Source: Planctomycetia bacterium
GTDB taxonomy: Bacteria > Planctomycetota > Planctomycetia > Pirellulales > Thermoguttaceae
Direction of reading: 5' to 3'
NCBI GenBank assembly: GCA_030527185.1
Contig: JAUNBF010000004.1
Location: 30,347 to 94,346, forward strand
DNA: 64,000 bases
Below, piece by piece: positions 31,199 through 56,926 of the stretch. The notes beneath the pieces were generated by a model that ran no database searches, was not told the DNA's origin, and saw nothing but the letters and a program-made list of their open reading frames with translations. Each line of letters starts with the position of its first letter. The stretch's first letter is position 1. A program made the position numbers and the translations under genes.

Positions 31199-31330
31199 AA
31201 TACTCTCTGCTTCGGTTGGTTAAAATAAAAAAGACTCGATTCCAAAAAGTTTACTCCAGGGGAAATTCTTCCCAAGAGAAGGAAATCCAGACGGTTAAAA
31301 ATTCAACCGCCTGAATTTTTGTTGCTTTTT

Positions 31331-34300: not shown

Positions 34301-37300
34301 TGGCACGAACGGATCCATCGTCTGCGTCCAAAAACGAACCATCCGATCTCCCACGTTGGCCTGAAGCCACTGAATATGCCCCGGTTTGAGCGCTTCGAGT
34401 ACCGGAGCCGTCCAAACGACCGATTCTCCTTCAAAATCAGGCATCCACCGGACATTCGGAGCCGGTTCCTCCACCTCCCCTTTCCGCATCCAGATCGAAT
34501 AGGCCTGTGACGCACCTGTCGGCAAAAGTTTTCCGCCCGGTTCCCGTTTCACAAAAAGCTCCACCTCCGGGTCGGCAGGATTCAGCGTGGGCGTCCCCAC
34601 CGTAATCCGACATTCCGCCGTTTTGCCGCGATATTGGGCACGAAGTGTGAAAACACCGCTCTCTTCCCCCGCCACTTCCGCCGATGGTCGCAAAAGCCCG
34701 GACGGAGCACGCCAGAAGAGCTTCTCCGGCACCTTCCACAAAACTTTTTCCGGCAAAACTTCCGTAAACGTTTCCGAACCCTCCAACTGCTCTTCCACCG
34801 CCAAAGAAATCGACTGTCCCGGTGCGAGCGTCACTTCCGAAGGTACGACGCGAAGTGTCTGTGGAGGATTCGTGGCCGTGACGGTCACACGTGCCTGAGC
34901 CGGATTTTTCAAATAAGGCAAAAACGAAGCGGATACATCAAACGGTTCGGAAGCCTGCTTCCCAAACAAAAGAGGACTCTGCCACTGCACCGCGTCCCGA
35001 TTTCCAAAGGAATAGTACACCCCCGGAGACTCCATCGCCACGCTCCACTCGCTCTCCTCCCCCTCCCCGGCATCGGGATTTCGACCTTCCAACATCAGTT
35101 CCAACGGAGCCACTTCCCCAACTGCCACCTGCACATCCGTCGGCTGCCAGTAAAGTCGGGCATTTCGTGGATGAACCACCCGTAAATCGACGCTGGCCGG
35201 ATTTTCCGAAGCAGGGTGTTCCGCAGTCAAGGTGGCTGTGCCTGCCGCGACCGCCTTGTAAGCTCCCCTATTTTCCCCCGCGACCGCCACCACTTCCGCG
35301 TTGCCAGAGGCATATTTTCCCACATTCGGCACCAGTTCCACATCCCCCTGAGCCGTTTTTCCCGTCAAAATCGCCATTCCCGGTTCGCCCGCCACACGCA
35401 GCGACCGATCCACCTCCAACGCCAACATCACCTCCGCTCGTTCCACCGTCGTCAACTCCGCGTGATTCGACTCCGTTCCCAGATAATTCCCCCAGATATT
35501 GACCGGCCCGGCCCCCACATCAAGTGCCATCGCCTTGCCATGGACAAAGTCGAAACCTTCCACTTCGTCGGGCAGGGGATTCGTGTTCCACTGCATTCGG
35601 GTGTACGGAACGAGCGTACTCACACCATCACCATACGTTGCCCAACCGTCAAACGTCTGGCACAGTCCCAACGGCAAAGCCACTTTCCCTCCCGGACGGA
35701 TTTCCAGCCGCATCGGCGCTGGAATCACCTGCACAGACGAGGCTTTTTTCTGTCCCTGGTACGAGAAAACAATCTGTTGCGGGTCGTCCTGTGTCGTCGG
35801 ATTCAGCCCACGAATTCCCATGCGGCGAAAGTCCATCCCGGCGTAACGAACGTTCGGCAACGACTCCGCTCGAACAGCACCGGTATCCAGTGCGTAAAAC
35901 CGCGACGCTCCACATCGGGCAAAAAATTCCGGGCAAATCTCATGATCCACCGCCACGGCTGCCACGGGAGGATACATCATCAGCCCATCCGCTTTCAATG
36001 CTGCCACCGTCACGGGAAGCGTGATTTCCTGCGTCCCATCCGTCACGGTAATTTCCGCCGACCCCGCCTTTTTTCCAATCAGATAACGATTCTTTTCCAC
36101 CCGCACCACATTCGGCTGGCTGCTGGTGACGCTCACCGCCGACTCGTCCCCGCAAATCCACGACAACGGGTATTTCTGATCCACCGCCAGCGTAATCTGA
36201 GCTTCTTTCCCCGCAGGATAGACACGCAATCGCGCGTCGGTTGCCTTCTGTTCAATTGTCAAAACCGTCTCTGCCGTCTGTATCACCGTGGCTGCCGGAG
36301 TGCCGTCGGTCAGTGCGACCTGCAATCGCCCCGTTCCACTCTGCAACGTTCGCAGATGATTCCCGCCGTAGCGTGCCATGGCAGGAGGGTCGATCCCCCA
36401 CTGCAAATGCGACGACCCGGTAAATTCGTACTTTTCCCCCTCCGCCGTCCTGCCGAAAACCTGGAGACCAACCTTTTTCCCCACAGGCAACGTCGCCGTT
36501 CCCAACGCAATTTCCAGCGACGTGATGGCTGCCGTGCCGACACTCACCGTGGCCGACGCGTCCATCCAGCTATCCTGCGGCGTGGCGCGGTAGCGGGCGG
36601 AAATCGTACTTTCCCCCGGCTGCAAACCTTCGACAAAACCTTGGTAAAAATAGACCGTTCCATCATTTTTGGCATTCCAGTCCGCCGCGTTCGACAACTC
36701 ACTGATCCGGCCATCCTCCCATTCCCCCATCAGCCGCACCTGAGCCGTGGAACCATCCGCCAGCGTCAAGTGTTCCGGTTCCAGCCAAATCCGTTGGGGA
36801 TTGACCGCCGCCGCAACCGTCACCGGGACGCTCTTCCGCCGCCAGCCGTGAAAAAAGTGAATCTTCGTCTCCCCTTCGCTGCACGCCAGGGCTGTTCGTG
36901 AATCTTCCTGAAAAAAAGCTATCGTCGGGTCTTCCACCGCCTGAAGCACACGGTCCGTCACATCTTCCGACAGGAAAAAGCCAAAACCGTCCCATCCCGG
37001 CGTGATGACACGGAACGTTGCCGTTGCCCCGACACTCGTTTTCCACGGCCCCGGAACCACTTTCAGCGTCAATTGATTCCACAGAACCCACCCCGCCAAA
37101 AACAACAGAAACAACACCGCCAGAATTCGGCGATTTCTTCGGCGAGCAGCCTCCCGTGCCTTCCGTTTGGCTGTCGGAACTTTCAGACAAATCGGACAAC
37201 GTGCTTTTGCTCCTGGCAGACGGACGTACAACTCGTTACATGCCTCATCGTCACAAATCAACGGCGTGCCGAACTCCTGATGAATCGGATGGTAGCCTGG

Positions 37301-37753
37301 AATCCAGACCAGACGCCACAATCCGCCCGCGTCCTGGTACTTGAAAAAATAGTATGTCCGATCCGGCCGTCGTTTGTTTTCGATCAAATCCTGAAATTCT
37401 TCCGACAATTTCTGGTAGAGAATCTTCTCCGTCGTCGAGGAGGGCTTGATCCGCTCAAAACGCAATTGTAATCGTTCGATCTCACTCGATAACTTTTCGT
37501 TCAAATCTTCATTATTGACCGTCGTGCAGGTTATCTCTTCAATCCGCCCACCCTGGTCGTTCCGAATATAAAAAGAGAGAATTTCGCCATTTTCATCCCA
37601 TTCCGGTTCCGGGGTCATGCCGCCAAACCATCGAAACAGAATCCGATCGTTGGCGTTCGTGGGATCGAAAAGAGGGCAACCAGGTTCCAGTGCCACGGGA
37701 CGGAAGAATTGTCCAGATTCCGAAAGATTGATACGTACAAACGCTTTGGCCAT
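31331..37753 (-). CDS. Giant single-pass membrane protein: cytoplasmic N-domain with zinc ribbon, TM helix, ~1900 aa of Big_2-like Ig repeats
   Basis: 2140 aa. C167/C172..C186/C189 (CDDEAC..CPIC). Basic stretch KRKAREAARRRNRR then TM ILAVLFLLFLAGWVLW (nt ~37076-37129). Many repeats end in motifs like GKKAGSAEITVTDG and GKAGITAEL, typical of bacterial Ig-like group 2 domains. Confidence 0.85.
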   Translation of the reverse strand: MAKAFVRINLSESGQFFRPVALEPGCPLFDPTNANDRILFRWFGGMTPEPEWDENGEILSFYIRNDQGGRIEEITCTTVNNEDLNEKLSSEIERLQLRFERIKPSSTTEKILYQKLSEEFQDLIENKRRPDRTYYFFKYQDAGGLWRLVWIPGYHPIHQEFGTPLICDDEACNELYVRLPGAKARCPICLKVPTAKRKAREAARRRNRRILAVLFLLFLAGWVLWNQLTLKVVPGPWKTSVGATATFRVITPGWDGFGFFLSEDVTDRVLQAVEDPTIAFFQEDSRTALACSEGETKIHFFHGWRRKSVPVTVAAAVNPQRIWLEPEHLTLADGSTAQVRLMGEWEDGRISELSNAADWNAKNDGTVYFYQGFVEGLQPGESTISARYRATPQDSWMDASATVSVGTAAITSLEIALGTATLPVGKKVGLQVFGRTAEGEKYEFTGSSHLQWGIDPPAMARYGGNHLRTLQSGTGRLQVALTDGTPAATVIQTAETVLTIEQKATDARLRVYPAGKEAQITLAVDQKYPLSWICGDESAVSVTSSQPNVVRVEKNRYLIGKKAGSAEITVTDGTQEITLPVTVAALKADGLMMYPPVAAVAVDHEICPEFFARCGASRFYALDTGAVRAESLPNVRYAGMDFRRMGIRGLNPTTQDDPQQIVFSYQGQKKASSVQVIPAPMRLEIRPGGKVALPLGLCQTFDGWATYGDGVSTLVPYTRMQWNTNPLPDEVEGFDFVHGKAMALDVGAGPVNIWGNYLGTESNHAELTTVERAEVMLALEVDRSLRVAGEPGMAILTGKTAQGDVELVPNVGKYASGNAEVVAVAGENRGAYKAVAAGTATLTAEHPASENPASVDLRVVHPRNARLYWQPTDVQVAVGEVAPLELMLEGRNPDAGEGEESEWSVAMESPGVYYSFGNRDAVQWQSPLLFGKQASEPFDVSASFLPYLKNPAQARVTVTATNPPQTLRVVPSEVTLAPGQSISLAVEEQLEGSETFTEVLPEKVLWKVPEKLFWRAPSGLLRPSAEVAGEESGVFTLRAQYRGKTAECRITVGTPTLNPADPEVELFVKREPGGKLLPTGASQAYSIWMRKGEVEEPAPNVRWMPDFEGESVVWTAPVLEALKPGHIQWLQANVGDRMVRFWTQTMDPFVPGEKPAPREGEPSAVRIISNSGTEVSMPVGAKYVDYRVEAEYPDGFVRIVTKDANLHAIAGDKSIVSPSNGELVAAKPGKVTFIAEYKGVDSEEPPLTLNVTETVDIDELRLVPEKDIRMLPGETVTFQLHGYKEKKSVGVLTSMGNIVWKSSDPAVAAPQGPVTTSVALGKAGITAELQGITSAPAAVEVVATIDEKLGPTDNVIKMMVGESKLVGKDFALIRGNVDFSMQCKVTPLVPGICEYDAARHALVGKTPGATDVIFTMADKKATMRVIVGGVDQETLTLLREEGEILVEPANSTISAGQATELRVYAVSKDRTVRLERTASAVFRSGDSTVCEVRGLQLCGLKPGGPVEISVMIPEITGKGKAGKATITVDEHPISELVVEPGAIRMSTGDRSNLFIQGRSNSGLRPLFAQPKLKVSVDGNAAKMNGIQSVEAVAAGKATVQIDWENRLQRAVSVEVDDNPYTNLAIDPVHTTVAVGEGRAYQVTALRGGRLYVLQPETGLQLTTADPNIAVVQGNMIFGKTVGKTNVVARFAGLVSEGTIEVVEVSAIPVSVESAYVDPNAAVTYRTGDTILDGGYHGVTSTDVFGDRAVDYVTTDGYSIGSVTGLRFNPASMRLSQTSGAVPLQILEEYSDGRPGRDVSADPGLELSSSSSLFTLERGENGIYRLVPNGKEGTGRVSAQLGDRTALPLFVQVGNVAAEGAILAVLPGALEMSVGNTMTFDSVRVMPSSGMMPMDVAYRVSVVENAGVVSVEGNTIRANAPGTARLQVSSIDPQGVYDNLTTYVPVTVTKPLQLSLSPMDITLRVGETTPSFVVTARDETGQSFPVSATISSTDETILQQDSLDPSRFRAVSLGKSQIRAAYGGQELYATVAVAGERYLSVDGQLNENANDFTVTLSVSASQGEGALEYRVYEANTAPPEVWVAGTPGADGLNVLLSSPAIAYRGRNDQYTLIIESRTAGGSNIQKYPYNFRIGGMIKRVD

Positions 37754-39008: not shown

Positions 39009-40202
39009 CTACGATTGGTATATCTTCGTCATGTTTTTGACATGTTCGATGATTTTATCCCGTAATTCCGGCGGGCGAAGGACTTCCACCTGATCTCCAT
39101 AGCCTAAAATCCACCATTGAATTTCTTCCAGCCCGGAGACTTCCAAATAATAATCCAGCGTTCCGTCGGCTCGTTCGTCAAATCTCCCCGTTCGGTGCCA
39201 GCGTACACTGCGGACATTCGGGGCGACTTTGGCACTGAATCGCAGATGAACCTTGGTATCTTTCTCCTCACGAATCATGCACCACGCATTTCCGAGAGAT
39301 TTTTCATAACTCCAGCCCAAAGGAACCGTAAAACGCTCGTTCGTGACCGTCAAACTCCGAATTCTTTCGATATGAAACGTCCGAATCGCGTTGTGAAGCG
39401 TACTGCGACCTGTTATATACCACGCTCGGCGGGTGAAATGAAGGTGGTAGGGAAGAAGTGTCGTCACGATCGTTTTTCGCTCAAAAACACTATCGTATTC
39501 CATCCTTACCTGAAGACGATTGTTGTGCGCATAAAGAATCTGATGAAAAATGCGTCCATCTTCAGAAGGAAAGGCTGTGGCGCATCCTTGAATACTCATA
39601 CGCTGCAACGTGCCATCCTGTTTCTTTACTCGAAATTCCTCCGAGAACAAACAACTCAATTTATAAATAGCACTTTGTGTTGCCTCCAGGTAAGGAATGG
39701 ACGCGTAATCATTACCACAAGCCAGACAAAGAAGGTACAGTGCCAATGCTTCCTCACAGGTTAAATCCAACGTGAGAAAAAAGCGACCTTCCTTCGAGAT
39801 TAACCGATACTGAGAGCGAATGTTCTTCGTCAGTTGAATCTGCAAGATCGTTTCAATACTCTCAAAGTCTCGATAAATCGAACGTTCTGAACAATTCAGT
39901 TTTTGCGACAAAACCCGAACAGAATACCAATCCTCCTGTAAATACTGAAGCACTCTTAAAACACGAATCACGCGTCGCGCAAGGCTTTCCGAGTTATTTT
40001 CCTCCTCCTCGTCGACCTTTTTCTTCGGCGGTCTCCCGCGACGAACCACTTTCGTCTCCGACTTTTCAGGAATGCTCTTTTTCTTCCCTTTCCCAGGATA
40101 GTTGCTGGAACTCACCATCGTTTCTTCATCGGCAACTTTCTTCGTGACTCTCTTCTTCGGTTTATCGGAAGTATTCCTGGAATCTGTCTCTTTTTTTCTC
40201 AT
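39009..40202 (-). CDS. HTH + WYL-domain transcriptional regulator with basic AT-hook-like N-terminal tail
   Basis: The track ORF extends to 40295 and overlaps argF. ATG 40202 gives MRKKETD... RRGRPPKKK (AT-hook core RGRP). HTH VRVLSQKLNCSERSIYRDF. WYL signature RRAWYITGRSTLHNAIRTFHIERI. Confidence 0.8.
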   Translation of the reverse strand: MRKKETDSRNTSDKPKKRVTKKVADEETMVSSSNYPGKGKKKSIPEKSETKVVRRGRPPKKKVDEEEENNSESLARRVIRVLRVLQYLQEDWYSVRVLSQKLNCSERSIYRDFESIETILQIQLTKNIRSQYRLISKEGRFFLTLDLTCEEALALYLLCLACGNDYASIPYLEATQSAIYKLSCLFSEEFRVKKQDGTLQRMSIQGCATAFPSEDGRIFHQILYAHNNRLQVRMEYDSVFERKTIVTTLLPYHLHFTRRAWYITGRSTLHNAIRTFHIERIRSLTVTNERFTVPLGWSYEKSLGNAWCMIREEKDTKVHLRFSAKVAPNVRSVRWHRTGRFDERADGTLDYYLEVSGLEEIQWWILGYGDQVEVLRPPELRDKIIEHVKNMTKIYQS

Positions 40203-40224
40203 CGTTTCGTCCCCGACAAATCGT

Positions 40225-41136
40225 TTACCGTTGACGCAATAACCAGACAATCGCTCCTTTTTGAGCATGCATCCGATTTCCCGCTTCCTGAACAATCACG
40301 CTCTGTTTCCCCTGCATCACCTCATCCGTCACTTCCAACCCGCGCCGTGCCGGAAGGCAGTGCATGAAATAAGCCTGCGGACAGTGAGCCATCAATGCCG
40401 CGTTGACCTGATATGGAGCAAACGCCTTTTCCCGCTTCGCTTTTTCCTCCTCCTGCCCCATGCTGACCCAGACATCGGTATAAACCACGTCCGCTCCCGT
40501 CACCGCTTCCACCGGGTCCTGCGTCACCCGCAATTTCCAACCAGGTTGATTCTCCGCAATCAATTGAAGCGTCTCGTCGGAAAACTGGTACTCCTTGGGA
40601 ACCGCCAGACTCATCTCAATCCCCAGTTTGCCACAGATAAACGCCAGACTCAACGCCACATTATTCGCGTCTCCCACCCACGCCAGTTTTCTCCCTTGCG
40701 TATCTCCCAGCAATTCCCGCATCGTGAAAATATCTGCCAATGCCTGGCACGGATGGCAAAAATCGGTCAACCCGTTGATTACCGGAATCGGCGACCAGTG
40801 CGCAAATTCCACCACATCTTCGTGATGTTTGGCTCGAATCATGACCAGATCGACCATCTCTCCCAAAACCCGCGCAAAGTCGCAAATCGGCTCCCGTTTT
40901 CCAAAGCCAACCTCCTCCGCCAGAAAAATGGCCGACCCGCCCAGATGAGTCATCCCTGCCTCAAAACTGACGCGCGTCCGCAACGACTGTTTCTCAAAAA
41001 TCATCCCCATCACATAACCGGGATACAACGGTTCGCGAATACCACGACGATACCGTTCCTTCAATTCCCGACCCGTCGCCAGGATTTCTTCGATTTCCAA
41101 TGGACTCAAATCTTTTAGCGTCAGCAAATGTCGCAT
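40225..41136 (-). CDS. argF: Ornithine carbamoyltransferase
   Basis: The track start at 41154 is TTG. ATG 41136 gives MRHLLTLKDL. SLRTRVSFE, HPCQALAD and HCLPA motifs. Confidence 0.9.
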   Translation of the reverse strand: MRHLLTLKDLSPLEIEEILATGRELKERYRRGIREPLYPGYVMGMIFEKQSLRTRVSFEAGMTHLGGSAIFLAEEVGFGKREPICDFARVLGEMVDLVMIRAKHHEDVVEFAHWSPIPVINGLTDFCHPCQALADIFTMRELLGDTQGRKLAWVGDANNVALSLAFICGKLGIEMSLAVPKEYQFSDETLQLIAENQPGWKLRVTQDPVEAVTGADVVYTDVWVSMGQEEEKAKREKAFAPYQVNAALMAHCPQAYFMHCLPARRGLEVTDEVMQGKQSVIVQEAGNRMHAQKGAIVWLLRQR

Positions 41137-42375: not shown

Positions 42376-42395
42376 CAATTATCAATTATCAATTA
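42376..42395 (-). repeat. (TAATTGA)n heptamer repeat beginning at the argB stop codon
   Basis: The sense strand reads GAA TAATTGA TAATTGA TAATTG TTTGG. The first TAA is the argB stop. Confidence 0.85.
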
Positions 42396-43307
42396 TTCCG
42401 GGTGTACGAAATGCGACGAATATTTTCCATTGCTGGCAATAATTTCTGTCCCAATTCCAACCGTCGTGAAAATTTCCAACATCAGGGAGTGCCGCAGACG
42501 TCCATCGACGATATGGACTTTCCGTACCCCTTTGTGAATCGTGTCGAAACAGGCCTGCACTTTCGGAATCATCCCGGAGGAAATCGCTCCCGAGGCAAAC
42601 ATTTTCTCCGCCATTTCCTGTGTCAGCGTCGGAACCAGCGAATCCGGGTCGTCTTTGTCCAGCCGCACGCCATTGACATCGCTGAGATAGACCAGTTTTT
42701 CAGCCCGAAAAGTCTGTGCCACCACCTTCGCCACCGTGTCGGCATTGACATTCAGCTTCATCCCATCCTCTGTCATGCACATCGATGGAATGACCGGAAT
42801 GACGTTCCGTTTCAGCAACTCCTGAATTGGTTCGGTATGGATATGCGTTGCCTCACCCACAAATCCCAAATCGAGAAGCTCCCCATTTTCCCCCTTCAAC
42901 TGGATCGGCTTCCCAAAAACCACATTTTCCGTGTTGAAATTCAGCGACTTGGCATTGCCACCCAGAATGGTGATCTGTTCCACGAGTTGCTCATTGATTT
43001 CCGTGGCCAGCACCTTTTCCACAATCTGGAGCGTCCGCTCGCACGTATAACGCCGCCCCTGCACAAAACGGGACTCCAACCCCGCTTCCACCATTGCCCG
43101 ATTGATTGCCGGTCCGCCGCCATGCACCACAATCGGCTTGATTCCCACCGTCTCCATGAAAACCAAATCTTGCAGCAAATGCGACATCGCCAACGGATCG
43201 GTCATCAAGCTCCCACCCAATTTAATAACGAATATCTTGCCACGAAATTCTCGAATCCAGTACAGAGCCTCAATCAGAATATCCGCTTTCTCTATCGCAT
43301 CCAGCAC
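42393..43307 (-). CDS. argB: Acetylglutamate kinase
   Basis: GTG start. FVIKLGGS, VVHGGGP and NVNADT motifs. Confidence 0.9.
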   Translation of the reverse strand: MLDAIEKADILIEALYWIREFRGKIFVIKLGGSLMTDPLAMSHLLQDLVFMETVGIKPIVVHGGGPAINRAMVEAGLESRFVQGRRYTCERTLQIVEKVLATEINEQLVEQITILGGNAKSLNFNTENVVFGKPIQLKGENGELLDLGFVGEATHIHTEPIQELLKRNVIPVIPSMCMTEDGMKLNVNADTVAKVVAQTFRAEKLVYLSDVNGVRLDKDDPDSLVPTLTQEMAEKMFASGAISSGMIPKVQACFDTIHKGVRKVHIVDGRLRHSLMLEIFTTVGIGTEIIASNGKYSSHFVHPE

Positions 43308-43416
43308 GGCACTTCTCCCAAAAACCAGAGTCCGACAATAATAAGGTAAACTTTTATTCTACCACTCCCCTCCCCAAATGTCAAGCGGGAAGTGAGAAAC
43401 CCTGACTTCAGAATTT

Positions 43417-43452
43417 CCCCTATTCTTCCACCATTTCGCACTGCGGCAGGGA
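43417..43452. repeat. 36-bp direct repeat (copy 1), a duplicate of the dinG 3' end
   Basis: CCCCTATTCTTCCACCATTTCGCACTGCGGCAGGGA is identical to 45635-45670. Confidence 0.95.
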
Positions 43453-43814
43453 CAATCATGGAGGATAGAATGAATGAGCAAATAACTTTTGCGGATTGGG
43501 GAATCTGTGAGACGGAAGCGGAGTACGAGATGGGAAACGTTTTGACGGAAGATGATAGGAGATGATCTCCGTGGAAAACGTGGGCGTCCTCCACGGGATA
43601 AATCACCAGTTTTTTACGCATACAAGTTCCCTATTTTCAAGCACTTGCGAAACTTCTTCTTTGCGAAGCTCCCGATGTGCTTACGAGCGGGGTAAATATC
43701 GCGTTTTACGAGGGATAACAGGTATTTTCAAGAAAATCGATCGGTAAACGTTGATTTTTTGAAATACGACTTTCCATGGCAAAATCAGAGATTGGTTCAG
43801 CGATTCACTAAAAA

Positions 43815-45548
43815 TCACGATTGCGCCAATTCATTACTTTTCAAATATTCAATAAACTCATCCAATATCTGTTGATTTCGTGCTAGAATACTTTCTTCTG
43901 TAAAATCGGATTCCCTTTCAGCCAGGACTTGCAATTCCTGAATATTGGTTCCTTTTTTGCGAGAATCAGGAGTCCCCAGATAGTACCTTTTTTTATCGGC
44001 AAATTTATAATCGGAAGCTCTTATGTTGATTTTCTTTTCCAGGAGAGATTTGTTGCCAAGTAAAGTTAAGCTTTTGGGATTTTGAAGGGTTCTTTCAAAT
44101 TCCAAACGATTTCGCGCATAAATGTGTTCAATGTCAAAAAGGTCATAGATTGAAAGCAGTTCCTGATCCTCATTCTGAAATGCCCACCACGCGAGCATGG
44201 ATTTGGTGATAGGCCGTCGGTTGTTAAACTCGTAGGTTTGGAGTAAACTTTTAAGTGCTTCGACATCAAATTTATGATTACCAAAAGTTACTGGTACCCC
44301 TTTTACGATGTTACACATTTCTGGGTAAATGGGGGTTCTCAATGCGTTAACACCCGGATTAACAATCGCATAAGCCCAGATAAATGCGGTGATTTTATTC
44401 AGGAACGCATAAAAAGTATCGTCATCAAGGTTTCCGCTGGTGTCTTTATGATGCATAAAATATACGGAAACAAGATAAGTCCACATCCCATTAGGGGCAT
44501 AATTTAAAACGAAAAACCTTTGAAGAATACGGTTTGAAAAACGGTCTTCATTCTGAGAAAAGACATCACTCCAAAAATTTGCCAGCAAGACCAGATTTTC
44601 AAAGGTTTCTTCCTTTTTCAACAGGCGGTAATGATCTTTTTCATAAAATAATCTCAGCCCCTCCGTCGTCGTGGAGGTTTCGCCTTGCAAAGCACGTTCA
44701 TAATACATGTACTCTGTAAAGAGAGACTCCATGCCCCAAGAGAAGGTTTTTTCGCAAAGCTCATCCAAATCCTTCCAGCGTTTGATAAATTCATTCTTTT
44801 TATCGCGATTCACGTAAAATTTATAGAATTGAGCCTTGAAAATATCCGTATCCGACAAAGGGAGTCCCCGGTCGTTCAAGGTCATAAAAATCCGAAAAGC
44901 GGAATCCTGCGAGTTGGCTTCAATCGGCAAAAGAACGCAGTTATTTAAAATACGTGTGGGAAAAAGAGCGAAATAAGCGGAATACTCTTCCAAAAAATTT
45001 TCGATTTGTTCCCGGAAAAATTTATAATTGATGGCGTAATTGCTTTCCTGTTCTTTATAGGCCGTACCTTCCGAACCATCACGCAGGATGGAAAGAAACT
45101 CATCCGTATCCTTCTCGGTGGCAACTTCGGAATCTATTTTGAAGGAATCCTGATCTGGATTGTCAAATTCATCGGTCATCCAGATACACTTTGCGATATT
45201 TTCTCTTGTGGTGCGGGAATTTTTATCCTGTTGTTTCTGTCCGAACTCGTAAAAAGCTCGGAGTAACAATGTCAAGGTGATCAAACGCTGCTGACCATCG
45301 ATGACTTCCAGTTTTCCACTGCTGTTTTTGAACGTTACAATAGGGCCAAGAAAATATTCGTCGTTGGTACTGTCAAAACGGTTACAATCACCTCCAGGAA
45401 AGGCGAAGGTGAAAAAATCTTCCCAAAGTGTTTGACATTCATCTATCTCCCATGCGTAAGGACGCTGATAGTCTGGAATGAGAAAGCCTAATTTCGTATC
45501 TCGAAATAGAGCATTGACCGTTTTTTGCTCAATCGTTAGGCGGGACAT
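43815..45548 (-). CDS. DUF262 + DUF1524 (GmrSD-like) nuclease, candidate type IV restriction/defence protein
   Basis: N-terminal ParB-like DUF262 motifs IPDYQRPYAWE and IDGQQRLITL. The C-terminal DIEHIYARN..LGNKSLLEKKIN is an HNH/His-Me-finger-like DUF1524 motif. Confidence 0.8.
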   Translation of the reverse strand: MSRLTIEQKTVNALFRDTKLGFLIPDYQRPYAWEIDECQTLWEDFFTFAFPGGDCNRFDSTNDEYFLGPIVTFKNSSGKLEVIDGQQRLITLTLLLRAFYEFGQKQQDKNSRTTRENIAKCIWMTDEFDNPDQDSFKIDSEVATEKDTDEFLSILRDGSEGTAYKEQESNYAINYKFFREQIENFLEEYSAYFALFPTRILNNCVLLPIEANSQDSAFRIFMTLNDRGLPLSDTDIFKAQFYKFYVNRDKKNEFIKRWKDLDELCEKTFSWGMESLFTEYMYYERALQGETSTTTEGLRLFYEKDHYRLLKKEETFENLVLLANFWSDVFSQNEDRFSNRILQRFFVLNYAPNGMWTYLVSVYFMHHKDTSGNLDDDTFYAFLNKITAFIWAYAIVNPGVNALRTPIYPEMCNIVKGVPVTFGNHKFDVEALKSLLQTYEFNNRRPITKSMLAWWAFQNEDQELLSIYDLFDIEHIYARNRLEFERTLQNPKSLTLLGNKSLLEKKINIRASDYKFADKKRYYLGTPDSRKKGTNIQELQVLAERESDFTEESILARNQQILDEFIEYLKSNELAQS

Positions 45549-45597
45549 GCTATTTCCTTTCGCAAAGAGTTGTGAATTTGTTTCTAATGAACCATAG

Positions 45598-45625
45598 ATT
45601 GTACCACATTAAAAATTTTTGTCAA
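45598..45625 (-). promoter_or_regulatory. Consensus promoter TTGACA-16-TACAAT for the DUF262 gene
   Basis: Minus strand: TTGACA (45625-45620), 16-nt spacer, TACAAT (45603-45598). About 50 nt upstream of ATG 45548. Confidence 0.55.
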
Positions 45626-45634
45626 GAAAATACC

Positions 45635-45670
45635 CCCCTATTCTTCCACCATTTCGCACTGCGGCAGGGA
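45635..45670. repeat. 36-bp direct repeat (copy 2), covering the last 10 codons plus stop of dinG
   Basis: The minus strand reads SLPQCEMVEE* across this repeat. Confidence 0.95.
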
Positions 45671-47692
45671 ATTCAGGAACATTTTGCCGTAAAACTTTTT
45701 TTTGATTCGAGGGTCGAGAATCACGACCATGCCGGTATCCTGTTTGGTGCGGATGAGGCGGCCGAAACCTTGTTTCAACTTGATGACCGCTTCGGGAATC
45801 TGGTACTCCAGAAATGGATTCCCGCCACGAGCTTTGATGGCATCCACGCGAGCTTCCACCAGAGGATGGTCGGGAACGCGAAACGGCAGCTTCGTGATGA
45901 TCACATTCCGCAACGCATGACCCGGAACATCGACCCCTTGCCAGAAACTGTCCGTCCCGAAAAGGACGCTGCGGGGATTCCGTTTGAATTGTTCCAGCAT
46001 CAGCGATCTGGCCATCCCTTCTCCCTGTGAGAAAATGCCCAGATTCTGGTTGACGAGCCACGGCGTCAATTCCGCCACCATCCGATTCATCAGGCCGTAG
46101 CTGGTAAACAGCACAAACGCATGGCCGTCCGTCATTCCCACATACCGACAGATTTTCTCCGCCAATCGCTTTTCATACGCCGCCGGTTCAGAAACGGGGT
46201 CTGGCATTCCGGTGCCCAACACGAGACGTGCCTGGTGCTGGTAGTCGAACGGACTTCCCAACGCCATTGTTTCCGCCTGCGTCAAACCAATCCGTTGCCG
46301 AAAATAATCGAAATTCGCTTCCGTCCCTGGCTTGGCCGATTTGGCGGTGGTCAGTGTCGCGCTGGTCATCACCACGGAATCGGTCGTGTTGAACAACATT
46401 TGCCGCATGAGTGGTCCGACATCCACCGGCGCACCGCAAAGTTCCACTCGTGGCACTTTCCGACCACTTCGACTTCCCGAAAAGACGTTCAGCCAATAGA
46501 CAAAACCCTCTTCCGACTGCGAAATCCACGTATCGATTCCCAAAGCCAGGGCATTCAGCCGTTCCGCCACCGATTCCAATTCCAGACGTTCTTCGGGAAG
46601 GTCTTTTCCCTGCGCATCGTTGAAAATGCACCCCGCCAGCTTGGACAAGGCCACGCTCAACTCGTTTTCCACGATTTTTCGCTGCCGCACCCGCAGTTCA
46701 CTGGAATGGAATGTTGCCTGCAACTGAGCCGTTTTTGCTTCGTACCATTCGCTCAAGTCCCAGAAAAAATTGTCCATCGTTACATAGCATTCCATCGCCA
46801 GACGCCGTGCTTCCGGCAAATCGTGCTGTACCAGAATCCCCTTGTGTGTCCGCAAATTGTAGAGCCGTCGCAACAGGTACTCCACCTGACCGTTGGAAAT
46901 GCCAATACCGAGATGGTCGCCCGCGACGCTTTCCATTGAGTGCGCTTCGTCAAAAATCACCGCGTCGTACTGCGGCAAAATCGCTCCCCCCGCGTTCCGT
47001 ACGGCCAGATCGCTGAAAAACAACGCATGATTCACCACCAGAATCTGCGCATTGCGAATCCGGCGGCGGGCACTCTGGTAAAAACATCGATTGTAAAAGG
47101 GGCACTTTTTCCCCAGACAATTCCCCGTTTCGCAGCAAATTTCCTCCCAAACCCGAGAATCGTATTTGAAATGCAGGTCGGCCAACGTTCCATCCTGCGT
47201 CTGATTGGCCCAGACACGAAAATCTTCCAGTTGCTCCAGGTCGTTTAACTCCGTAAACAACGTCCCCCCATGTTTTCGAGCATTTTCCAGACGACGCAGG
47301 CAGAGATAGTTGGAACGTCCCTTCACCAGCACAAAACTGAACTCCAACGGCAAAAGTGCGCTTAAAAAAGGAAGGTCTTTCTGAATCAGTTGTTCCTGCA
47401 AACTGATTGTCTGCGTCGAGACGATGATTCGGCGAAAAAGCGTTTTCGGAGCCTCCTCCGTCAGGGAGGGATATTCCTGCGACGTGGCCAGAATGGCGGG
47501 AACCAGATACCCGAAACTTTTGCCAACCCCCGTCCCCGCTTCCAGGACCAGATGATGTTTCTTCTGAAACGCTTCCAGAATCGCCTGTCCCATCGTCACC
47601 TGTTGCGGACGGACTTCGTAATCCACCTTCCGCGACGACAGCAAACCTCCTTCGCCAAGAATATTCTCCGGGGTATAAAACGTCTCGGACAT
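45638..47692 (-). CDS. dinG: DinG/XPD-family ATP-dependent DNA helicase with Fe-S cluster cysteines
   Basis: The track start at 47740 is TTG. ATG 47692 gives MSETFYTPE. Walker A EAGTGVGKS, DEAH box VIFDEAHSME, and a Cys cluster CCETGNCLGKKCPFYNRC. Confidence 0.85.
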   Translation of the reverse strand: MSETFYTPENILGEGGLLSSRKVDYEVRPQQVTMGQAILEAFQKKHHLVLEAGTGVGKSFGYLVPAILATSQEYPSLTEEAPKTLFRRIIVSTQTISLQEQLIQKDLPFLSALLPLEFSFVLVKGRSNYLCLRRLENARKHGGTLFTELNDLEQLEDFRVWANQTQDGTLADLHFKYDSRVWEEICCETGNCLGKKCPFYNRCFYQSARRRIRNAQILVVNHALFFSDLAVRNAGGAILPQYDAVIFDEAHSMESVAGDHLGIGISNGQVEYLLRRLYNLRTHKGILVQHDLPEARRLAMECYVTMDNFFWDLSEWYEAKTAQLQATFHSSELRVRQRKIVENELSVALSKLAGCIFNDAQGKDLPEERLELESVAERLNALALGIDTWISQSEEGFVYWLNVFSGSRSGRKVPRVELCGAPVDVGPLMRQMLFNTTDSVVMTSATLTTAKSAKPGTEANFDYFRQRIGLTQAETMALGSPFDYQHQARLVLGTGMPDPVSEPAAYEKRLAEKICRYVGMTDGHAFVLFTSYGLMNRMVAELTPWLVNQNLGIFSQGEGMARSLMLEQFKRNPRSVLFGTDSFWQGVDVPGHALRNVIITKLPFRVPDHPLVEARVDAIKARGGNPFLEYQIPEAVIKLKQGFGRLIRTKQDTGMVVILDPRIKKKFYGKMFLNSLPQCEMVEE

Positions 47693-47740
47693 CGTTTTTG
47701 CCAATAACCTTCCTCTGGTTTCTCTGGAATTCCTTTCCAA

Positions 47741-49096
47741 TCAGAACGTAAATCCCAGACCGGGTTCGTCCAGCACCTCCGTTTGGATACTCCCGTCGGA
47801 AATACGGAAAATTTCGGGATATTTTTCCGCGTAACCCGCGTTGGCACAGGGGCAATACTGCCGTCCATTTCCTTCAATCGCCGCAACTGTCGGAATGTGA
47901 GCGGCCAGCGACGCACTGTGCAAAAACGACGCTCCCGGACAGGTCAAATCCTGAACGCAGAGGAAAAGTCCATATTTTTGTGCCGCCGCCCCCATCAGGA
48001 GCGCTTCTGAATGCCCTTTGCATGCCTTCAGCGCCACGCCGCTATACCCCAACTCCCGGCTCAGCAACAACGACTCCAAATCGACCAGCGACTCATCGAT
48101 CACGACCGGACGTTGCCGTGCCACCCGAAACATCTCCACTCGCGGCAAAGCCTTCAAATCCCGATTCGTCGGCTGCTCGATGTACTGCAAACAGGCCAAC
48201 ATGTGCGGAGAGCGTTCCTCCATCTTCCGCAGCCACTCCAGAACATACTCCTCGTCCCGACATTTTTCGTTGAAATCCGCCGAATAGTACCACTCTTTCA
48301 CGCCACGTTGGGACTGTGCCGCAGAGGTGATCGTCTCGATCGCCACGCACCGCTCGACATCCTGCCGCAAATCTTCCCCGTTGAGCTTGATTTTCAAATG
48401 CGTCAGTCCATCCGCCAGAATCCATTCCTCCAGCGTCTCCGGCAAACCATCGTTCAGCCGCTTCGGAATATCCGCCTCCGTCAGCGGGTCCAGACCACCG
48501 ACGAGATGATACAACGGCATCCGTTTCTTCGGGTGCGGCAAAACGTACTGTTCCAGATATTCGCCCTGAAAATCGTCGCCCAAATAAGCCGACAAATCGG
48601 TGTTGACGAAATCCGGCCCCAGCAGCTGAAAACTGCTCCGTCCCAACATTTTACCATAAGCGTCAAACATCGCTGCTTCCAGAGGACTGGCCGCCACCAG
48701 TTGTGCCAATCGCGGAAACGCCTCGGAAAAACCGACCTCTTCACGTACATCGTCTGCCACGCTCTGGTAATGTTGCGAAAACTGCTGGCACCACTCCAAC
48801 GGATGATGAAAACCGGAAAGCGTCGATGCCCATTCCCTCACCTTTTGCCCAAAATCGACCATGGCAGAGAGGGTCTGATCGTTCGTCATCGCGGAAGAAA
48901 TCCATGCCCACGCATTTCCCATCGTCATGGAGCCGTAGCCCACTCCGCGCTTTCCATCCCGCGACTCGACTTCCGCGCAGACGTTCAGAATCGTCACCGA
49001 ATCAACCACCCGCCCGCCAAATTTCATCGGCGCACGGTAGGTGTAATTCTCGATTCCACTGGCTATATTTTTAATGGCAATATCGGTATTTTTCAT
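47741..49096 (-). CDS. Enolase-superfamily protein (mandelate racemase/muconate lactonizing enzyme-like)
   Basis: Capping-domain start YRAPMKFGG..GVGYG. Barrel motifs HLKIKLNG (KxK), YIEQP and VIDESL (metal ligands). Confidence 0.7.
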   Translation of the reverse strand: MKNTDIAIKNIASGIENYTYRAPMKFGGRVVDSVTILNVCAEVESRDGKRGVGYGSMTMGNAWAWISSAMTNDQTLSAMVDFGQKVREWASTLSGFHHPLEWCQQFSQHYQSVADDVREEVGFSEAFPRLAQLVAASPLEAAMFDAYGKMLGRSSFQLLGPDFVNTDLSAYLGDDFQGEYLEQYVLPHPKKRMPLYHLVGGLDPLTEADIPKRLNDGLPETLEEWILADGLTHLKIKLNGEDLRQDVERCVAIETITSAAQSQRGVKEWYYSADFNEKCRDEEYVLEWLRKMEERSPHMLACLQYIEQPTNRDLKALPRVEMFRVARQRPVVIDESLVDLESLLLSRELGYSGVALKACKGHSEALLMGAAAQKYGLFLCVQDLTCPGASFLHSASLAAHIPTVAAIEGNGRQYCPCANAGYAEKYPEIFRISDGSIQTEVLDEPGLGFTF

Positions 49097-49128
49097 TATT
49101 TTTTCGCAGATTTGGAAAGTGGGGTTCG

Positions 49129-49638
49129 TTAGTTCATCGGCGGGTCGATAATCATATCGTATGCCATAAACTCATGAAGCATGAAAAAGATTCCCAACAG
49201 CAGTACCGCTACGGAAATCCACAACATCACCTCATACGGTGAGGCTTGCGTTAATTTCTGGAAAAAGGAGGGCTTTTCCTCTTTTTCGACAGGACTCTCC
49301 CCATCCGAAACTTCGTCCGAATCCTCCTGGTATTCCGATTCCTCTTCTTCGGCAACGTCCTCATCCGGTTCTTCGGGGTATTCCTCCCCATCCTCTTCCT
49401 GGGGATAATCTTCTTCGGGATACTCTTCTACCGCATCCTCACTCCCTTCCTCCGAGTATTCTTCTTCCGCGTATTCCTGCGGTTCTTCCTCGTACTCTTC
49501 GTAATATTCCTCTTCTTCCGAGGGTTCCTCCCCCCCATCTTCCACAGCTTCGTATTCTTCTTCAGGCATCCATTCTTCCTGGTATTCGTTTTTCTCGTTC
49601 GGATCAGCCATGAAATCTCTCCCTTGAATGTTTTCCAA
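49129..49638 (-). CDS. Extremely acidic E/Y/D-rich protein with a C-terminal TM anchor
   Basis: About 115 aa of EEEYYEEYEEEPQEYAEEEYSEEG-type sequence, then the TM MLWISVAVLLLGIFFML. An alternative start is MADPNEK. Confidence 0.55.
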   Translation of the reverse strand: MENIQGRDFMADPNEKNEYQEEWMPEEEYEAVEDGGEEPSEEEEYYEEYEEEPQEYAEEEYSEEGSEDAVEEYPEEDYPQEEDGEEYPEEPDEDVAEEEESEYQEDSDEVSDGESPVEKEEKPSFFQKLTQASPYEVMLWISVAVLLLGIFFMLHEFMAYDMIIDPPMN

Positions 49639-49822
49639 TTATTTTGACTACACTTCTTGCCCGATTTTTATACACCATCTCTATTATAACCGAAAATCCC
49701 CCTTTTTGGCAAGTGTTTATCGCCATTTCAAAGAAACTTTTTCAAATCTTGGGCAGAATACACCTGTTGTAACAATTATGTCGGCAGAAAATCGCCTCTT
49801 TCATGAATCGAATCTGTTTTCA

Positions 49823-50458
49823 TCATTCCTTTTCCAGCAAAAGGCCACATCCCAGGAAAATGTACAAAAGGCTGCACACGGAATTCATACGGCGAGAATA
49901 GTTCGGATTTTTCAAAAATCTCTCGCCTAAAAAATGACTCACCGAAACGACCAGAATCAGCCACAACGTTCCAATTCCATAAAATGTCCAGCCCAGCAAC
50001 AATATCGGCCATGGACTTTCCACATATTGCGGATTGACAAACTGCGGCAAAAAGGCCAGAAAAAAAAGTGCCACTTTCGGATTGAGGAAATCGACCAAAA
50101 CGCCCTGAAAAAAATCTTTCCACAGAGAATGGTTCTCGATTTTTTTATAATTGGTCGTCGGAAGGAGATGACGCTGCCGCCATGTTTGAATCCCCAGGTA
50201 GAGAAGGTAACACGCTCCCAAAATTTTGATCGTCTGAAAAAGCCAGAGCGACTGTGCGACAAGCAGCGTGATTCCCAGCGAAACACATAGCGTATGAAGC
50301 AAAATCCCCGTCGTGATTCCTAGGGAGGAAATGATCGGTGAAATCCACGTCCGCGTCGAAAGCGTTTTCCCTAAAATGTAAAACGTATCCACACCCGGCG
50401 TCAAGCACAATAGAATCGACGACAAAATAAAAAGTCCGTAATGTTCTATTCCAAACAT
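49823..50458 (-). CDS. LysE/RhtB family amino-acid exporter
   Basis: SD GAGGTGA before ATG 50458. The MFGIEHYGLFILSSILLCLTPGVDTFY N-terminus is typical of the family. Six hydrophobic segments. Confidence 0.8.
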   Translation of the reverse strand: MFGIEHYGLFILSSILLCLTPGVDTFYILGKTLSTRTWISPIISSLGITTGILLHTLCVSLGITLLVAQSLWLFQTIKILGACYLLYLGIQTWRQRHLLPTTNYKKIENHSLWKDFFQGVLVDFLNPKVALFFLAFLPQFVNPQYVESPWPILLLGWTFYGIGTLWLILVVSVSHFLGERFLKNPNYSRRMNSVCSLLYIFLGCGLLLEKE

Positions 50459-50540
50459 CGTTTCACCTCGCAAACTCATTTTGCGGAAATATCAGGAGGC
50501 TGCCTGGAAAAAACAACCCCCTGAATCCTGTGGTGAGCCA

Positions 50541-51800
50541 TCAGCCACCGAAATCGTCGAAGTAAATATTCTCCCGCTCCACACCGAGAGAATCGAGCAG
50601 TTTCAACACCGCTTTCGTCATCATCGGCGGGCCGCACATGTAATACTCACACAATTCCGGCGTCGGATGGTCTTTCAGATACTCATCGTACAACACCTGA
50701 TGGATGAAACCCGTCGGTCCCTGCCAGTTGTCCTCCGGGAGCGGGTCGCTCAAGGCCAGGTGCCAACTGAAATTGGGAAATTCCTTCGCCAGAGCTTCAA
50801 ATTCCTCCGCGTAAAAGACCTCCCGCAGACTTCGGGCACCGTACCAGTACGAAATCTTCCGTTTCGTCTTCAGCCGTTTGAGCAAATCGAAAATATGCGA
50901 CCGCAAAGGTGCCATTCCTGCGCCGCCGCCGATGTAAACCATCTCCGAATCGGTGTTCGATGGGAAAAATTCGCCGTACGGACCGCTGATCGTCACTTTA
51001 TCCCCCGGTTTGAGGCTGAAAATGTACGACGACATCACCCCTGGAGGAAACTTGGTATTTGGCGGGGGGGACGCGATACGGACGTTGAGCATGATAATCC
51101 CTTTTTCCTCAGGATAATTTGCCATGGAGTACGCCCGCAGATCGGGATGATCCACTTTCGACACATAGTCCCACACATGAAAACGATCCCAGTCAGGATG
51201 GAATTTCTCGTCAATATCGAAATCCTTGTACGCCACCTCATACGGCGGGCATTCGATCTGGATATAACCGCCCGCCTTGAAGTTGACTTCCTCACCTTGG
51301 GGAATTTCCAGCACCAACTCTTTGATAAACGTCGCCACATTCCGATTCGAGCGAACCGTGCACTCCCATTTCCTCACGTCAAACACTTCGGCGGGAATCC
51401 GAATTTTCATATCCTGTTTCACAGGCACCTGGCAACTCAACCGCCAGTGATCCCGAATTTCGCCACGGGTAAAATGGTCTTTTTCCGTGACCAGAATATC
51501 ACCGCCACCCTCAATCACCTGAAGACGACACTGCCCGCACGTCCCTTGACCACCGCAGGCACTGGCGACGAAAATCTTCTGCGACGCAAGCGTCTGTAAA
51601 AGTTTCCCACCGGCAGGAACCTGCAACGTCTTTTCAGGATCATCGTTAATTTCTATCTTGATGTCGCCCGTGGCAACCAAAAAACTGCGTGCGATGAGAA
51701 TTGCCACGACCAGGAGCATGACGACGACGGTAAACATCATCACCCCCAGGCCGATCTGCATTCCCGCCGACACAGCCAAAATAACCGAAAAATCAAGCAT
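50541..51800 (-). CDS. nqrF: Na+-translocating NADH:quinone reductase subunit F
   Basis: N-terminal TM, 2Fe-2S motif [11 protein letters not shown], and FAD/NAD blocks RAYSMAN and GGGAGMAP. Confidence 0.93.
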
Positions 51801-51830
51801 ATCGAAAACCTTCTCGTTTGTTGTTAATGA

Positions 51831-52421
51831 TTAAATCCCGGAAAATACCATAAACGCCATGGCAATCAAGCCTACCGTGATGAACGTGATGCCCAATCCC
51901 CGCAGACCGGCTGGAACTTCGCTATACTTACACCGTTCCCGAACCGCCGCCAGAATGACGATTGCCAACGCCCAGCCCATGCCACTGCCGAATCCGTAGC
52001 AGACGCTCTCCGCCAGGTTGTAATCCCGCATTTCCATAAAGAGCGAACCGCCCAAAATCGCGCAGTTCACCGTAATCAGCGGAAGAAAAATCCCCAGAGC
52101 GTTGTAAAGTGACGGAAAATAACGATCCAGCGTCATTTCCAAAATCTGCACCATGGCCGCAATCACGCCGATGAAGCTGATCAGCGAGAGAAAATTCAGG
52201 CTCACCCCTTCAAACAGGGCATTTTCCTTCAAAACCGTATTCAAAATGATATTGTTCACCGGAATGGTAATTGTCTGAACGACGACGACCGCAATTCCCA
52301 GCCCAATCGCCGTTGAAACCCGTTTGGAGACGGCCAGGAACGTACACATTCCCAAAAAGAAGGAAAGTGCCAGGTTTTCGATAAAAATCGAACGGACAAT
52401 AATCGATATATAATGTTCCAT
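51831..52421 (-). CDS. nqrE: Na+-NQR subunit E
   Basis: 196-aa polytopic protein in the Rnf/Nqr D/E family. Operon position is between nqrD and nqrF. SD AGGAGG. Confidence 0.9.
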
Positions 52422-52432
52422 CGTTTCCTCCT

Positions 52433-53050
52433 TTAATCTTCAATCTGTTCCGGGCGATACGTGCGGAGAATCCAAATGAAAAATCCGATCAGGAAAAACG
52501 CACTCGGTGCCAGCAGCATGATTCCCCACGGCTGATACCAACCACCGTCGTTGACCGTCTGGAAAATCGTCATTCCGAAAAGTTTCCCGGAACCCAGCAG
52601 TTCTCGAATCGCGCCAATGACCAGCAAAACCAGACTGTAACCCAATCCATTTCCAATGCCGTCCATGAAACTGGCCACCGGAGGATTTTTCATCGCGTAG
52701 GCCTCCGCTCGACCCATGATAATGCAGTTCGTGATGATCAGCCCCACAAAAACCGACAACTGACGGCTGATTTCAAACGCGTACGCCTTCAAAATCTGAT
52801 CCACCACGATCACGAACGACGCGATAATCACCATCTGGACAATCATCCGAATCGAATCGGGAATGAAATTCCGAATCAGGCTGATCGCCCAACTGGAACA
52901 GGCCGTTACCAATGTCACCGCCAGCGACATCGTAAACGCCGTCTCCAATTTCGTCGTCACCGCCAGCGCCGAGCAAATCCCCAGCACCTGCAGCGCAATC
53001 GGATTGTTCTTGAAAATCGGATCCAATAATACGGAAGAATATTTACTCAT
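52433..53050 (-). CDS. nqrD: Na+-NQR subunit D
   Basis: 205 aa. [18 protein letters not shown]-terminus. ATGA overlap with the nqrC stop. Confidence 0.9.
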
Positions 53051-55135: not shown

Positions 55136-55139
55136 AAAA

Positions 55140-56498: not shown

Positions 56499-56926
56499 GG
56501 TTCTATTTTCTTTGGGTGAAATAAAAACGAATCGTAAAGGAAGCCCGGAGACAGAAATGACCTCCTGACTCCGGCACGTTCAATAATTTACTGTTCATTC
56601 TAGCACACACCCCGATTTTTTTCGATGGGGGAGGGAGGGGTTTTTAGAAAAAATAGTAAAAATTTATCAAAATTCCAAGAGTATGCCTACCAAAACTCTT
56701 CCGTCAAAAGCGATCTGGAGACATCGGAAGTTATTTTTAACAAAATAGGGAATCCCCCTCTCTCCCTTTCTATCGATCAATCATAATCCCGCACTTCCCA
56801 AGAATGGCTTCCGTTTCCACCAGAAAAACCGCTTCTGTTTTCCCATTATTTTTTGAGTAGGCGGAGTTGTTTTATCAACCAGATACAATAGGGAGAGAGT
56901 GACCAAAAAGACCACCCTCTCCAAGA

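Follow-up and report, generated by a model that had tools for sequence, protein, structure and literature searches.

A GmrSD-family gene between duplicated dinG ends in a ruminant-gut planctomycete: a probable relic of site-specific integration with cargo turnover

A duplicated gene end around foreign DNA, with the gene itself left intact, is the standard result of integrase-mediated insertion at the 3' end of a gene. Integrative and mobilizable elements (IMEs) with a tyrosine integrase commonly target the 3' ends of housekeeping genes, one of the flanking repeats holding the gene end (PMC5704250), and elements that have no integrase but retain the attachment (att) sites attL and attR are known as cis-mobilizable elements (CIMEs), which are decay products (PMC5704250). 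Members of the GmrSD superfamily are defined by an N-terminal DUF262 (GmrS) domain with the motif (I/V)(I/V)DGQQRLTT (PMC4619093). Here we describe a 2.2-kb islet that lies between dinG, encoding a DinG/YoaA-family helicase, and argB on contig JAUNBF010000004.1 of assembly GCA_030527185.1, in a 64-kb stretch of DNA hereafter called the window. The source is a Thermoguttaceae planctomycete of the ruminant gut; the DinG relatives in GTDB genomes come from metagenome-assembled genomes (MAGs) of Thermoguttaceae/Planctomycetia from ruminant guts, and are at most 66% identical and non-syntenic. The islet holds a single GmrSD-family gene and is bracketed by exact copies of the dinG end, and on balance we read it as a relic of site-specific integration with cargo turnover, that is, as an ancient att-type slot at the dinG 3' end in a CIME-like state, whose distal repeat copy was later renewed.

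The bracketing repeat is the 36-mer CCCCTATTCTTCCACCATTTCGCACTGCGGCAGGGA, which occurs at exactly two sites in the window, 43417-43452 and 45635-45670, and is the highest-ranking direct repeat of the region. A third copy could not be found in the window with up to 3 mismatches allowed, and 100 shuffles gave 0 matches, in agreement with the original prediction that the 36-mer is not a dispersed repeat. Repeat search and translation also bore out that both copies lie at the positions proposed, one of them being the end of dinG and the other non-coding. Between the copies the GC content is 40%, compared with 52% for the window and 51-57% for the flanks, and the third-position GC content (GC3) of the inserted gene is 0.42, compared with 0.62-0.64 for its neighbours. 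The description of an AT-rich islet with one 577-aa DUF262/DUF1524 gene and its own near-consensus promoter held up by composition, by Pfam and by promoter inspection, the promoter being TTGACA-16-TACAAT with an upstream TG (45625-45598, minus strand) and matching 11 of 12 consensus positions. All genes of the region are on the minus strand, in the order MR_MLE-type enzyme (47741-49096), DinG/YoaA helicase, DUF262/DUF1524 protein, argB, argD, argF and WYL regulator. The features of the slot are listed below from the dinG side to the argB side, and the relatives named in them (L018, L028 to L031) are introduced thereafter.

45638-47692, minus strand: the targeted gene, whose product is an XPD-like helicase of the DinG/YoaA family (684 aa; start ATG at 47692).
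45635-45670, minus strand: proximal repeat copy, consisting of the last 10 dinG/yoaA-like codons (SLPQCEMVEE*), the stop TAG (45640-45638) and 3 nt; attL-like position.
45549-45634, minus strand: leader and promoter region of the GmrSD gene, AT-rich, with the promoter at 45625-45598.
43815-45548, minus strand: GmrSD gene, intact, 577 aa, with DUF262, a helical linker and DUF1524.
43762-43814, minus strand: 3' flank of the GmrSD gene, common to relative L018, whose homology stops at 43762.
43453-43761, no strand assigned: distal filler, 309 bp, 43% GC, specific to the window lineage.
43453-43462, minus strand: degenerate continuation of the distal copy, TCCATGATTG versus TCC-TGAAT- in dinG.
43417-43452, minus strand: distal repeat copy, non-coding, 36/36 identical to the proximal copy; attR-like position; TAG variant of the window lineage.
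43394-43416, minus strand: junction segment B', which separates the distal copy from the conserved argB promoter; its orthologues in L030 and L029/L031 are recognisable, though diverged.
43356-43384, minus strand: native argB promoter, TTGACA-17-TAGAAT with an upstream TG, conserved in L029, L030 and L031.
42393-43307, minus strand: argB (acetylglutamate kinase), which opens the argB-argD-argF-WYL block, the second conserved flank of the slot.
Predicted empty-site junction: ...CTTCAGAATTT + 36-mer + ATTCAGGAAC...; none seen in relatives.

The distal copy lies 109 nt upstream of the argB start (43307). Relatives with the same slot were recovered through protein-cluster members and exact-protein look-ups (look-ups with the DinG and ArgB of the window itself returned no contigs), and their divergence was calibrated by synonymous rates (dS) to the window.

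L028 (NCBI GCA_030533045.1), dS ~0.10: 98% identical to window 45583-56685.
L018 and L030 (two Logan contigs, SRR22588136), dS 0.23-0.31: same leader and GmrSD gene, with 96% aa identity.
L029/L031, dS ~0.9: dinG and argB on one contig, with 680 bp of unrelated AT-rich DNA between them and no called gene.

In L018, an independent sample, the dinG-GmrSD adjacency is reproduced at 93% identity, and on the argB side L030 reads through an orphan 175-aa open reading frame (ORF), AT-rich DNA and a decayed second dinG end into the argB promoter. The two contigs do not overlap, and the islet of this sister lineage is at least 3 kb long with an unsequenced gap, its content being GmrSD plus at least 1 kb more. 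L029/L031 have no GmrSD gene, and in L029 the insert between the copies amounts to ~600 bp of AT-rich DNA. In L028 about 55 nt of the GmrSD leader follow the dinG stop and are succeeded by unrelated DNA, with neither GmrSD nor argB; either DNA at the slot has truly been deleted or rearranged, or the MAG is misjoined. Between lineages the inserts are unrelated, except that L018 has the leader-GmrSD module of the window and L028 a 55-nt remnant of the leader. The refuting finding envisaged at the outset, the same gene at the same place with ordinary composition and no repeats, was not what we saw, as in the gene-bearing relative the repeat has decayed and the DNA is just as AT-rich.

Several observations concern these relatives in their own right. 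Past the point of divergence, L028 (11098-18024 of JAUNKA010000004.1) carries planctomycete genes of normal GC content, encoding a DUF1559/N_methyl protein, a Metallophos protein and a GH42-like protein, and argD of this MAG is on a separate 1.8-kb contig. A candidate distal copy at 16574 of L028 was rejected as a gapped chance match (score 36; shuffle maximum 28). The segment around it, as read by eye, is presumably PEP-CTERM-type coding sequence. The orphan ORF of L030 (56-589; 175/177 aa, 49% GC, inside the sister-lineage islet) had no match in Pfam, PHROG, PADLOC or NCBIfam, and a single fragmentary homologue was found in 5.8 billion clusters.

The relatives allow the repeat and the cargo to be dated separately. 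In three lineages the distal copy and its junction keep a constant distance from the conserved argB promoter and show graded decay, from 36/36 in the window, through 26/36 in L030, to ~17 nt together with B' in L029/L031, and in every lineage the copy passes into B' at the same nucleotide. In L030 the copy is collinear over at least 55 nt and matches the dinG end of its own lineage at 40 of 51 nt, compared with 26/36 for the 36-mer of the window; its alignment score of 45 exceeds the null of 17.5 +/- 3.6 and was reached by 0 of 1000 shuffles. For L029/L031 the score is 30 against a null of 16.3 +/- 3.1, which was equalled in 4/1000 and 1/1000 shuffles. Since L029/L031 retain the remnant of the distal copy and have no GmrSD gene, the duplication, as judged from these alignments, predates the dS 0.9 split and is older than the presence of GmrSD at the site.

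Between the window and L018 the dS is 0.31 for GmrSD, compared with 0.23 for dinG, 0.31 for MR_MLE and 0.28 for argB, and the dN/dS of GmrSD is 0.067. Because the dS of GmrSD equals that of the neighbouring core genes, these rates show that its vertical inheritance at this position goes back beyond the window/L018 split, and that the gene is functionally constrained and under strong purifying selection. The repeat has a different history. The stop codon is TAG in the window dinG, in the window distal copy and in L028, and TAA in L018, in the L030 distal copy and in L029; the shared TAG, the derived state, indicates that the distal copy of the window was made or converted from the dinG end after the split from L018. 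In a neutral 36-mer of that age ~5 changes would be expected on the window branch, with a probability of ~e^-5 that there are none (our estimate from dS), and in the sister lineage (L030) 10 of the 36 positions of the distal copy have changed. By this reckoning the 36/36 identity is shown to be younger than the residence of GmrSD. The original prediction of a footprint of site-specific insertion therefore stands as regards the foreign islet and the att-like duplication of the gene end, but not as regards an exact repeat left untouched since GmrSD was delivered, given the GmrSD dS of 0.31, the ~5 changes expected, the lineage-specific TAG and a duplication older than the gene. The perfection of a flanking repeat is no sure guide to when the bracketed cargo arrived.

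Next to the renewed copy the similarity to the dinG end extends for ~10 nt past the 36-mer in degenerate form (TCC-TGAAT-T versus TCCATGATTGT at 43453-43462), and these positions may be an older, decayed duplicate adjoining the renewed 36 bp, which is only suggestive. The distal filler (43453-43761) has no similarity to the corresponding DNA of L018/L030, L029 or L028 and holds no supported gene. Folding of a 421-nt filler segment gave a z of -3.2 against shuffles, with one strong hairpin. A hairpin with a 12-bp stem (CCGTGGAAAACGTGGGCGTCCTCCACGG) lies at 43569-43596 in the distal filler, ~220 nt downstream of the GmrSD stop; it pairs better as minus-strand RNA and has no U-tract. A known or structured RNA in the islet was considered and rejected, as Rfam gave a sub-threshold transfer-messenger RNA (tmRNA) match within the GmrSD coding region and the filler fold could not be assigned. 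Likewise, a toxin-antitoxin remnant at 43459-43747, an idea based on two plus-strand ORFs with an ATGA overlap and a ParE-like 'VLHG' string, found no support from Pfam or PHROG, even when the frameshift-corrected peptide was included.

The cargo protein matches PF03235 (GmrSD_N; 7.8e-39, residues 12-241) and, barely above threshold, PF07510 (GmrSD_C; 2.8e-05, 24.5 bits versus a cut-off of 23). Its DUF262 motif VIDGQQRLITL spans residues 82-92, with D84-R88 invariant in 20 homologues, and its DUF1524 His-Me finger motif reads IEH...LGN...KIN, with E474, H475, N499 and N508 invariant in 20 homologues. The DUF262 motif, the E/D-H-N-N His-Me finger and the overall fold are those of the GmrSD superfamily, and the intact motifs support the proposed assignment to its nucleases. 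Foldseek returned probabilities of 1.0 for DndI (9JFL), SspE (6JIV/7DRR/7DRS) and BrxU (7P9M_B), and of 0.96-0.99 for other BrxU chains, with TM-scores of only ~0.3 for this multidomain protein, whose AlphaFold model has a mean predicted local distance difference test (pLDDT) score of 71. By sequence and fold the closest solved proteins are DndI (9JFL), SspE and BrxU, with an identity to solved members of ~11-17%, and the best PADLOC matches were the Orf5 model, the HEC-06 model and the SspE N-terminal domain. Among the 28 window ORFs scanned with Pfam there is no Dnd or Ssp component, the flanks being dinG and argB, so that the linkage to sspABCD or dndBCDE which marks SspE/DndI-type effectors is not seen in these ORFs. 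As predicted from these features, the cargo is most likely a stand-alone modification-dependent (type IV) restriction nuclease directed against phage or foreign DNA. The activity expected of such an enzyme would be phage restriction and NTP-stimulated cleavage of modified DNA (glc-HMC DNA, for example), and what bears on it here is the purifying selection on the gene (dN/dS 0.067).

The closest homologues of the gene are found in low-GC gut Firmicutes, Bacteroidota and Fibrobacter, and genes 60-63% identical to it abound in gut anaerobes of low GC content (Paludibacteraceae, Lachnospiraceae, Eubacterium, Fibrobacter). Because of its low GC and GC3 and because the nearest homologues are in low-GC gut bacteria, the GmrSD islet is, by its composition and affinities, foreign and horizontally acquired, and the same data suggest an acquisition within the gut community. 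One homologue (L020) forms the end cargo of another bacterium's IME, which encodes a tyrosine integrase, NikA, AAA_25 and Mob_Pre, and another (L032, MT839491) is directly downstream of a large serine recombinase. The flanks of GmrSD in five other contexts had no sequence in common. In L020 (5901-5929 and 7737-7765) and also in L021, the homologue is between 29-nt imperfect direct repeats that agree exactly over a 12-nt core, TTTTTGCAGTTA; in L020 the repeat copy on the downstream side overlaps the GmrSD stop codon, and among the contexts examined such a repeat is present in L020 and L021 only.

No mobility gene was found at the locus, as had been predicted: integrase, recombinase and transposase domains are absent from the islet and from the 28 window ORFs scanned, and tblastn with tyrosine and serine integrase queries gave no match in the window. 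The small ORFs of the islet have no match in Pfam or PHROG, and GmrSD is its sole ORF with a family match. The 30-nt core of the repeat is absent from IMG/VR and JGI metagenome contigs, and the argB promoter pattern had no match in the JGI metagenome contigs. Terminal inverted repeats, or a conserved cassette boundary, were looked for and rejected, since the inverted pairs are weak and internal and none is at the repeat edges. The locus displays the direct repeats of a CIME, one of them being the 3' end of an intact target gene, and has no integrase, excisionase, relaxase or conjugation genes; neither a related intact integrative and conjugative element (ICE), IME or prophage on the same att sequence nor an empty attB in close relatives was found.

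Taken together these data suggest the following history. A mobile element would have integrated site-specifically into the 3' end of dinG and thereby created the slot; it would have brought its own copy of the gene end, leaving dinG intact and a second, non-coding copy at the argB junction, the two corresponding to attL and attR. The content of the slot would later have turned over and every recombinase would have been lost, so that the window now presents a 2.2-kb relic with att-like repeats and no integrase, a CIME-like state, in which GmrSD is presumably expressed from its own sigma-70 promoter. In the window lineage the distal copy would then have been regenerated, through gene conversion of a short tract by the dinG end or through a second element that recombined at the old distal att copy, replaced the distal 309 bp and lost its own genes. 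In support of integration, the variable DNA lies exactly between the two copies in every lineage, and members of this GmrSD subfamily are carried by the IME of L020 with its tyrosine integrase and, in L032, beside the large serine recombinase.

A number of points weigh against this history. The original prediction had looked to relatives for an empty site with a single 36-bp copy at the dinG-argB junction, and none of them presented a clean one (dinG, a single copy, argB), since L029/L031 carry a different filler, L028 is rearranged after 55 nt and L018/L030 are occupied. An integrase-bearing element with this att sequence was not found, and no integrase was seen at the locus in any relative, although the L018/L030 islet is not closed and its unsequenced gap could hold a surviving integrase. 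Among the GTDB representatives of distant Thermoguttaceae there is neither dinG-argB synteny, nor an adjacent GmrSD, nor a duplicated dinG end, and repeated use of the site by an element family is thus not demonstrated. On the argB side the boundary between conserved and variable DNA is at 43393/43394, 23 nt past the repeat and not at its edge, although the segment between is orthologous and just evolves fast. The data do not discriminate between gene conversion and a second integration as the route of renewal, which account for the copy equally; a second integration followed by deletion would also explain the lineage-specific 309 bp. As for the cargo, its enzymatic specificity is putative, and the AlphaFold model is unreliable over nuclease residues 474-514, where pLDDT is below 50.

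The same observations can be arranged without any recombinase, an arrangement that we consider unlikely. Here an old local duplication of the dinG end or terminator region would have arisen by illegitimate recombination or slippage, foreign DNA would later have been swapped in and out through homologous recombination in the conserved flanks dinG and argB, as happens at hotspots with core genes on either side, gene conversion from the dinG end would keep or restore the identity of the distal copy, and the repeats would never have been att sites. No integrase or cognate element was found, the cargo varies by lineage between conserved flanks, the copy in the window was homogenised after the duplication in any case, and defence hotspots with no identifiable means of mobilisation are documented (PMC10121019). 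However, an insert placed exactly between the copies in every lineage would be a coincidence under this scheme and is a direct consequence of integration; a tandem duplication with no insert was not seen in any relative; and GmrSD genes of the same family travel on the integrase-bearing IME of L020 and beside a large serine recombinase.

It is more doubtful that the islet is still mobile, as a minimal element of 2.2 kb whose excision and re-integration depend on an integrase from elsewhere in the genome or from a co-resident element, the repeats reflecting a recent cycle. With its 36/36 identity the repeat looks far younger than the cargo, att cores are typically of about this length, and CIMEs can be mobilised by accretion with related elements (PMC5704250). 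A Logan contig of the same strain (L001, SRR24915838) also breaks at 43627, a hint of structural heterogeneity in the population. Against such mobility, the dS of GmrSD equals that of the flanking chromosome and indicates vertical descent, no integrase is encoded in the 64-kb window, none of the data sets yielded an excised or empty form, and the decay of the distal copy in the sister lineage implies that mobility is not a conserved property. A broader version of this idea, in which the dinG 3' end is the active att site of an undescribed family of planctomycete integrative elements and the islet is minimal cargo that is trans-mobilised or refreshed, seems to us improbable; if true, it would explain a pristine 36-bp repeat around a resident gene with a dS of ~0.3.

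An assembly artefact, in which the MAG contig misjoins the argB side to the GmrSD side through the shared 36-mer, is very improbable. The segment 43453-43626 and its join to the distal copy are covered by the window alone, and MAG assemblies are fragmented or rearranged at this locus in L028. On the other hand, L001 is 100% identical to 43627-45664 and ends 30 nt (k-1) into the proximal copy, which is the behaviour of a k=31 graph at a true repeat; the dinG-GmrSD adjacency recurs in the independent L018 (93%), L030 has a homologous distal copy upstream of argB, and in L029 dinG and argB are neighbours on one contig. The left end of L001, at 43627, is inside the lineage-specific filler and not just at the 36-mer, which hints at population or structural heterogeneity or at a repeated 30-mer there. 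Least credible of all is a transposon that duplicated 36 bp of its target on insertion, or homing driven by the HNH nuclease, for which the direct repeats around the insert and the nuclease nature of the cargo might be invoked: a transposase, the terminal inverted repeats (absent from the repeat-proximal ends) and the short target-site duplication of a transposon or insertion sequence are all missing, a 36-bp duplication being atypical, homing does not create flanking duplications, and the other genomic contexts of the GmrSD family share no common flanking sequence. To our knowledge, 36 bp far exceeds the target-site duplications known in bacteria.

Beyond the slot, the window contains further features of note. 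At 49795-50485 is a second AT-richer segment with presence/absence variation, which carries a LysE-family exporter gene (49823-50479, minus strand); it is present in the window and L028, is replaced by a 20-nt filler in L018, and has no flanking direct repeats. A large minus-strand block at 25669-37753 encodes an SrfB-like protein (938 aa, PF07520), an 864-aa ORF and a 2140-aa ORF, and resembles an SrfABC-type 'virulence factor' cluster, here in a planctomycete. Directly downstream of argF, and in the same place in L029, is a regulator with a helix-turn-helix (HTH), WYL and WCX architecture (39009-40295), which matches the PADLOC models for WYL and Cas3c-associated domains in what is the context of an arginine-biosynthesis operon.

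The slot is a small, well-dated case of cargo turnover at one att-type site, with four states and relatives at dS 0.1, 0.3 and 0.9, and it points to horizontal acquisition and long-term retention of a type IV restriction-like gene from low-GC gut bacteria by a ruminant-gut planctomycete, in a phylum whose mobile elements and defence systems are poorly described. Otherwise it fits established concepts, namely decayed integrative elements, defence hotspots and GmrSD-family enzymes. Like CIMEs, the islet has direct repeats of which one is the 3' end of an intact housekeeping gene, no integrase or transfer genes, a small accessory cargo, and evidence of turnover or accretion at one site across lineages. 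Unlike them, it has no known parent ICE or IME with the same att sequence and no observed empty attB, carries a single gene as cargo, resides in a planctomycete, has a dinG/yoaA-like helicase as its target, and has att copies of unequal age, the distal one renewed.

As in the defence hotspots, a fixed slot between conserved genes holds differing cargo in related strains, some occupants having no detectable mobility genes, whereas this slot is tiny (0.7 to >3 kb), has a duplicated gene end around it and has so far yielded one defence gene. The IME of L020 and the MT839491 scaffold carry cargo of equal length that is 60-63% identical, in L020 likewise at the element end, but those loci retain their recombinases and have no flanking or att-like sequence in common with the window. 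Finally, the window protein shares with the single-chain type IV enzymes of the GmrSD/BrxU group (PMC4619093; PDB 7P9K/7P9M) a DUF262 ParB/Srx-like NTPase domain with DGQQR, a helical linker and DUF1524, all in one polypeptide of ~580 aa with the E/D-H-N-N motif, the gene standing alone in a foreign islet; it differs from them in that, by structure and by sequence, it comes closest to DndI (9JFL) and SspE, which sense phosphorothioate.

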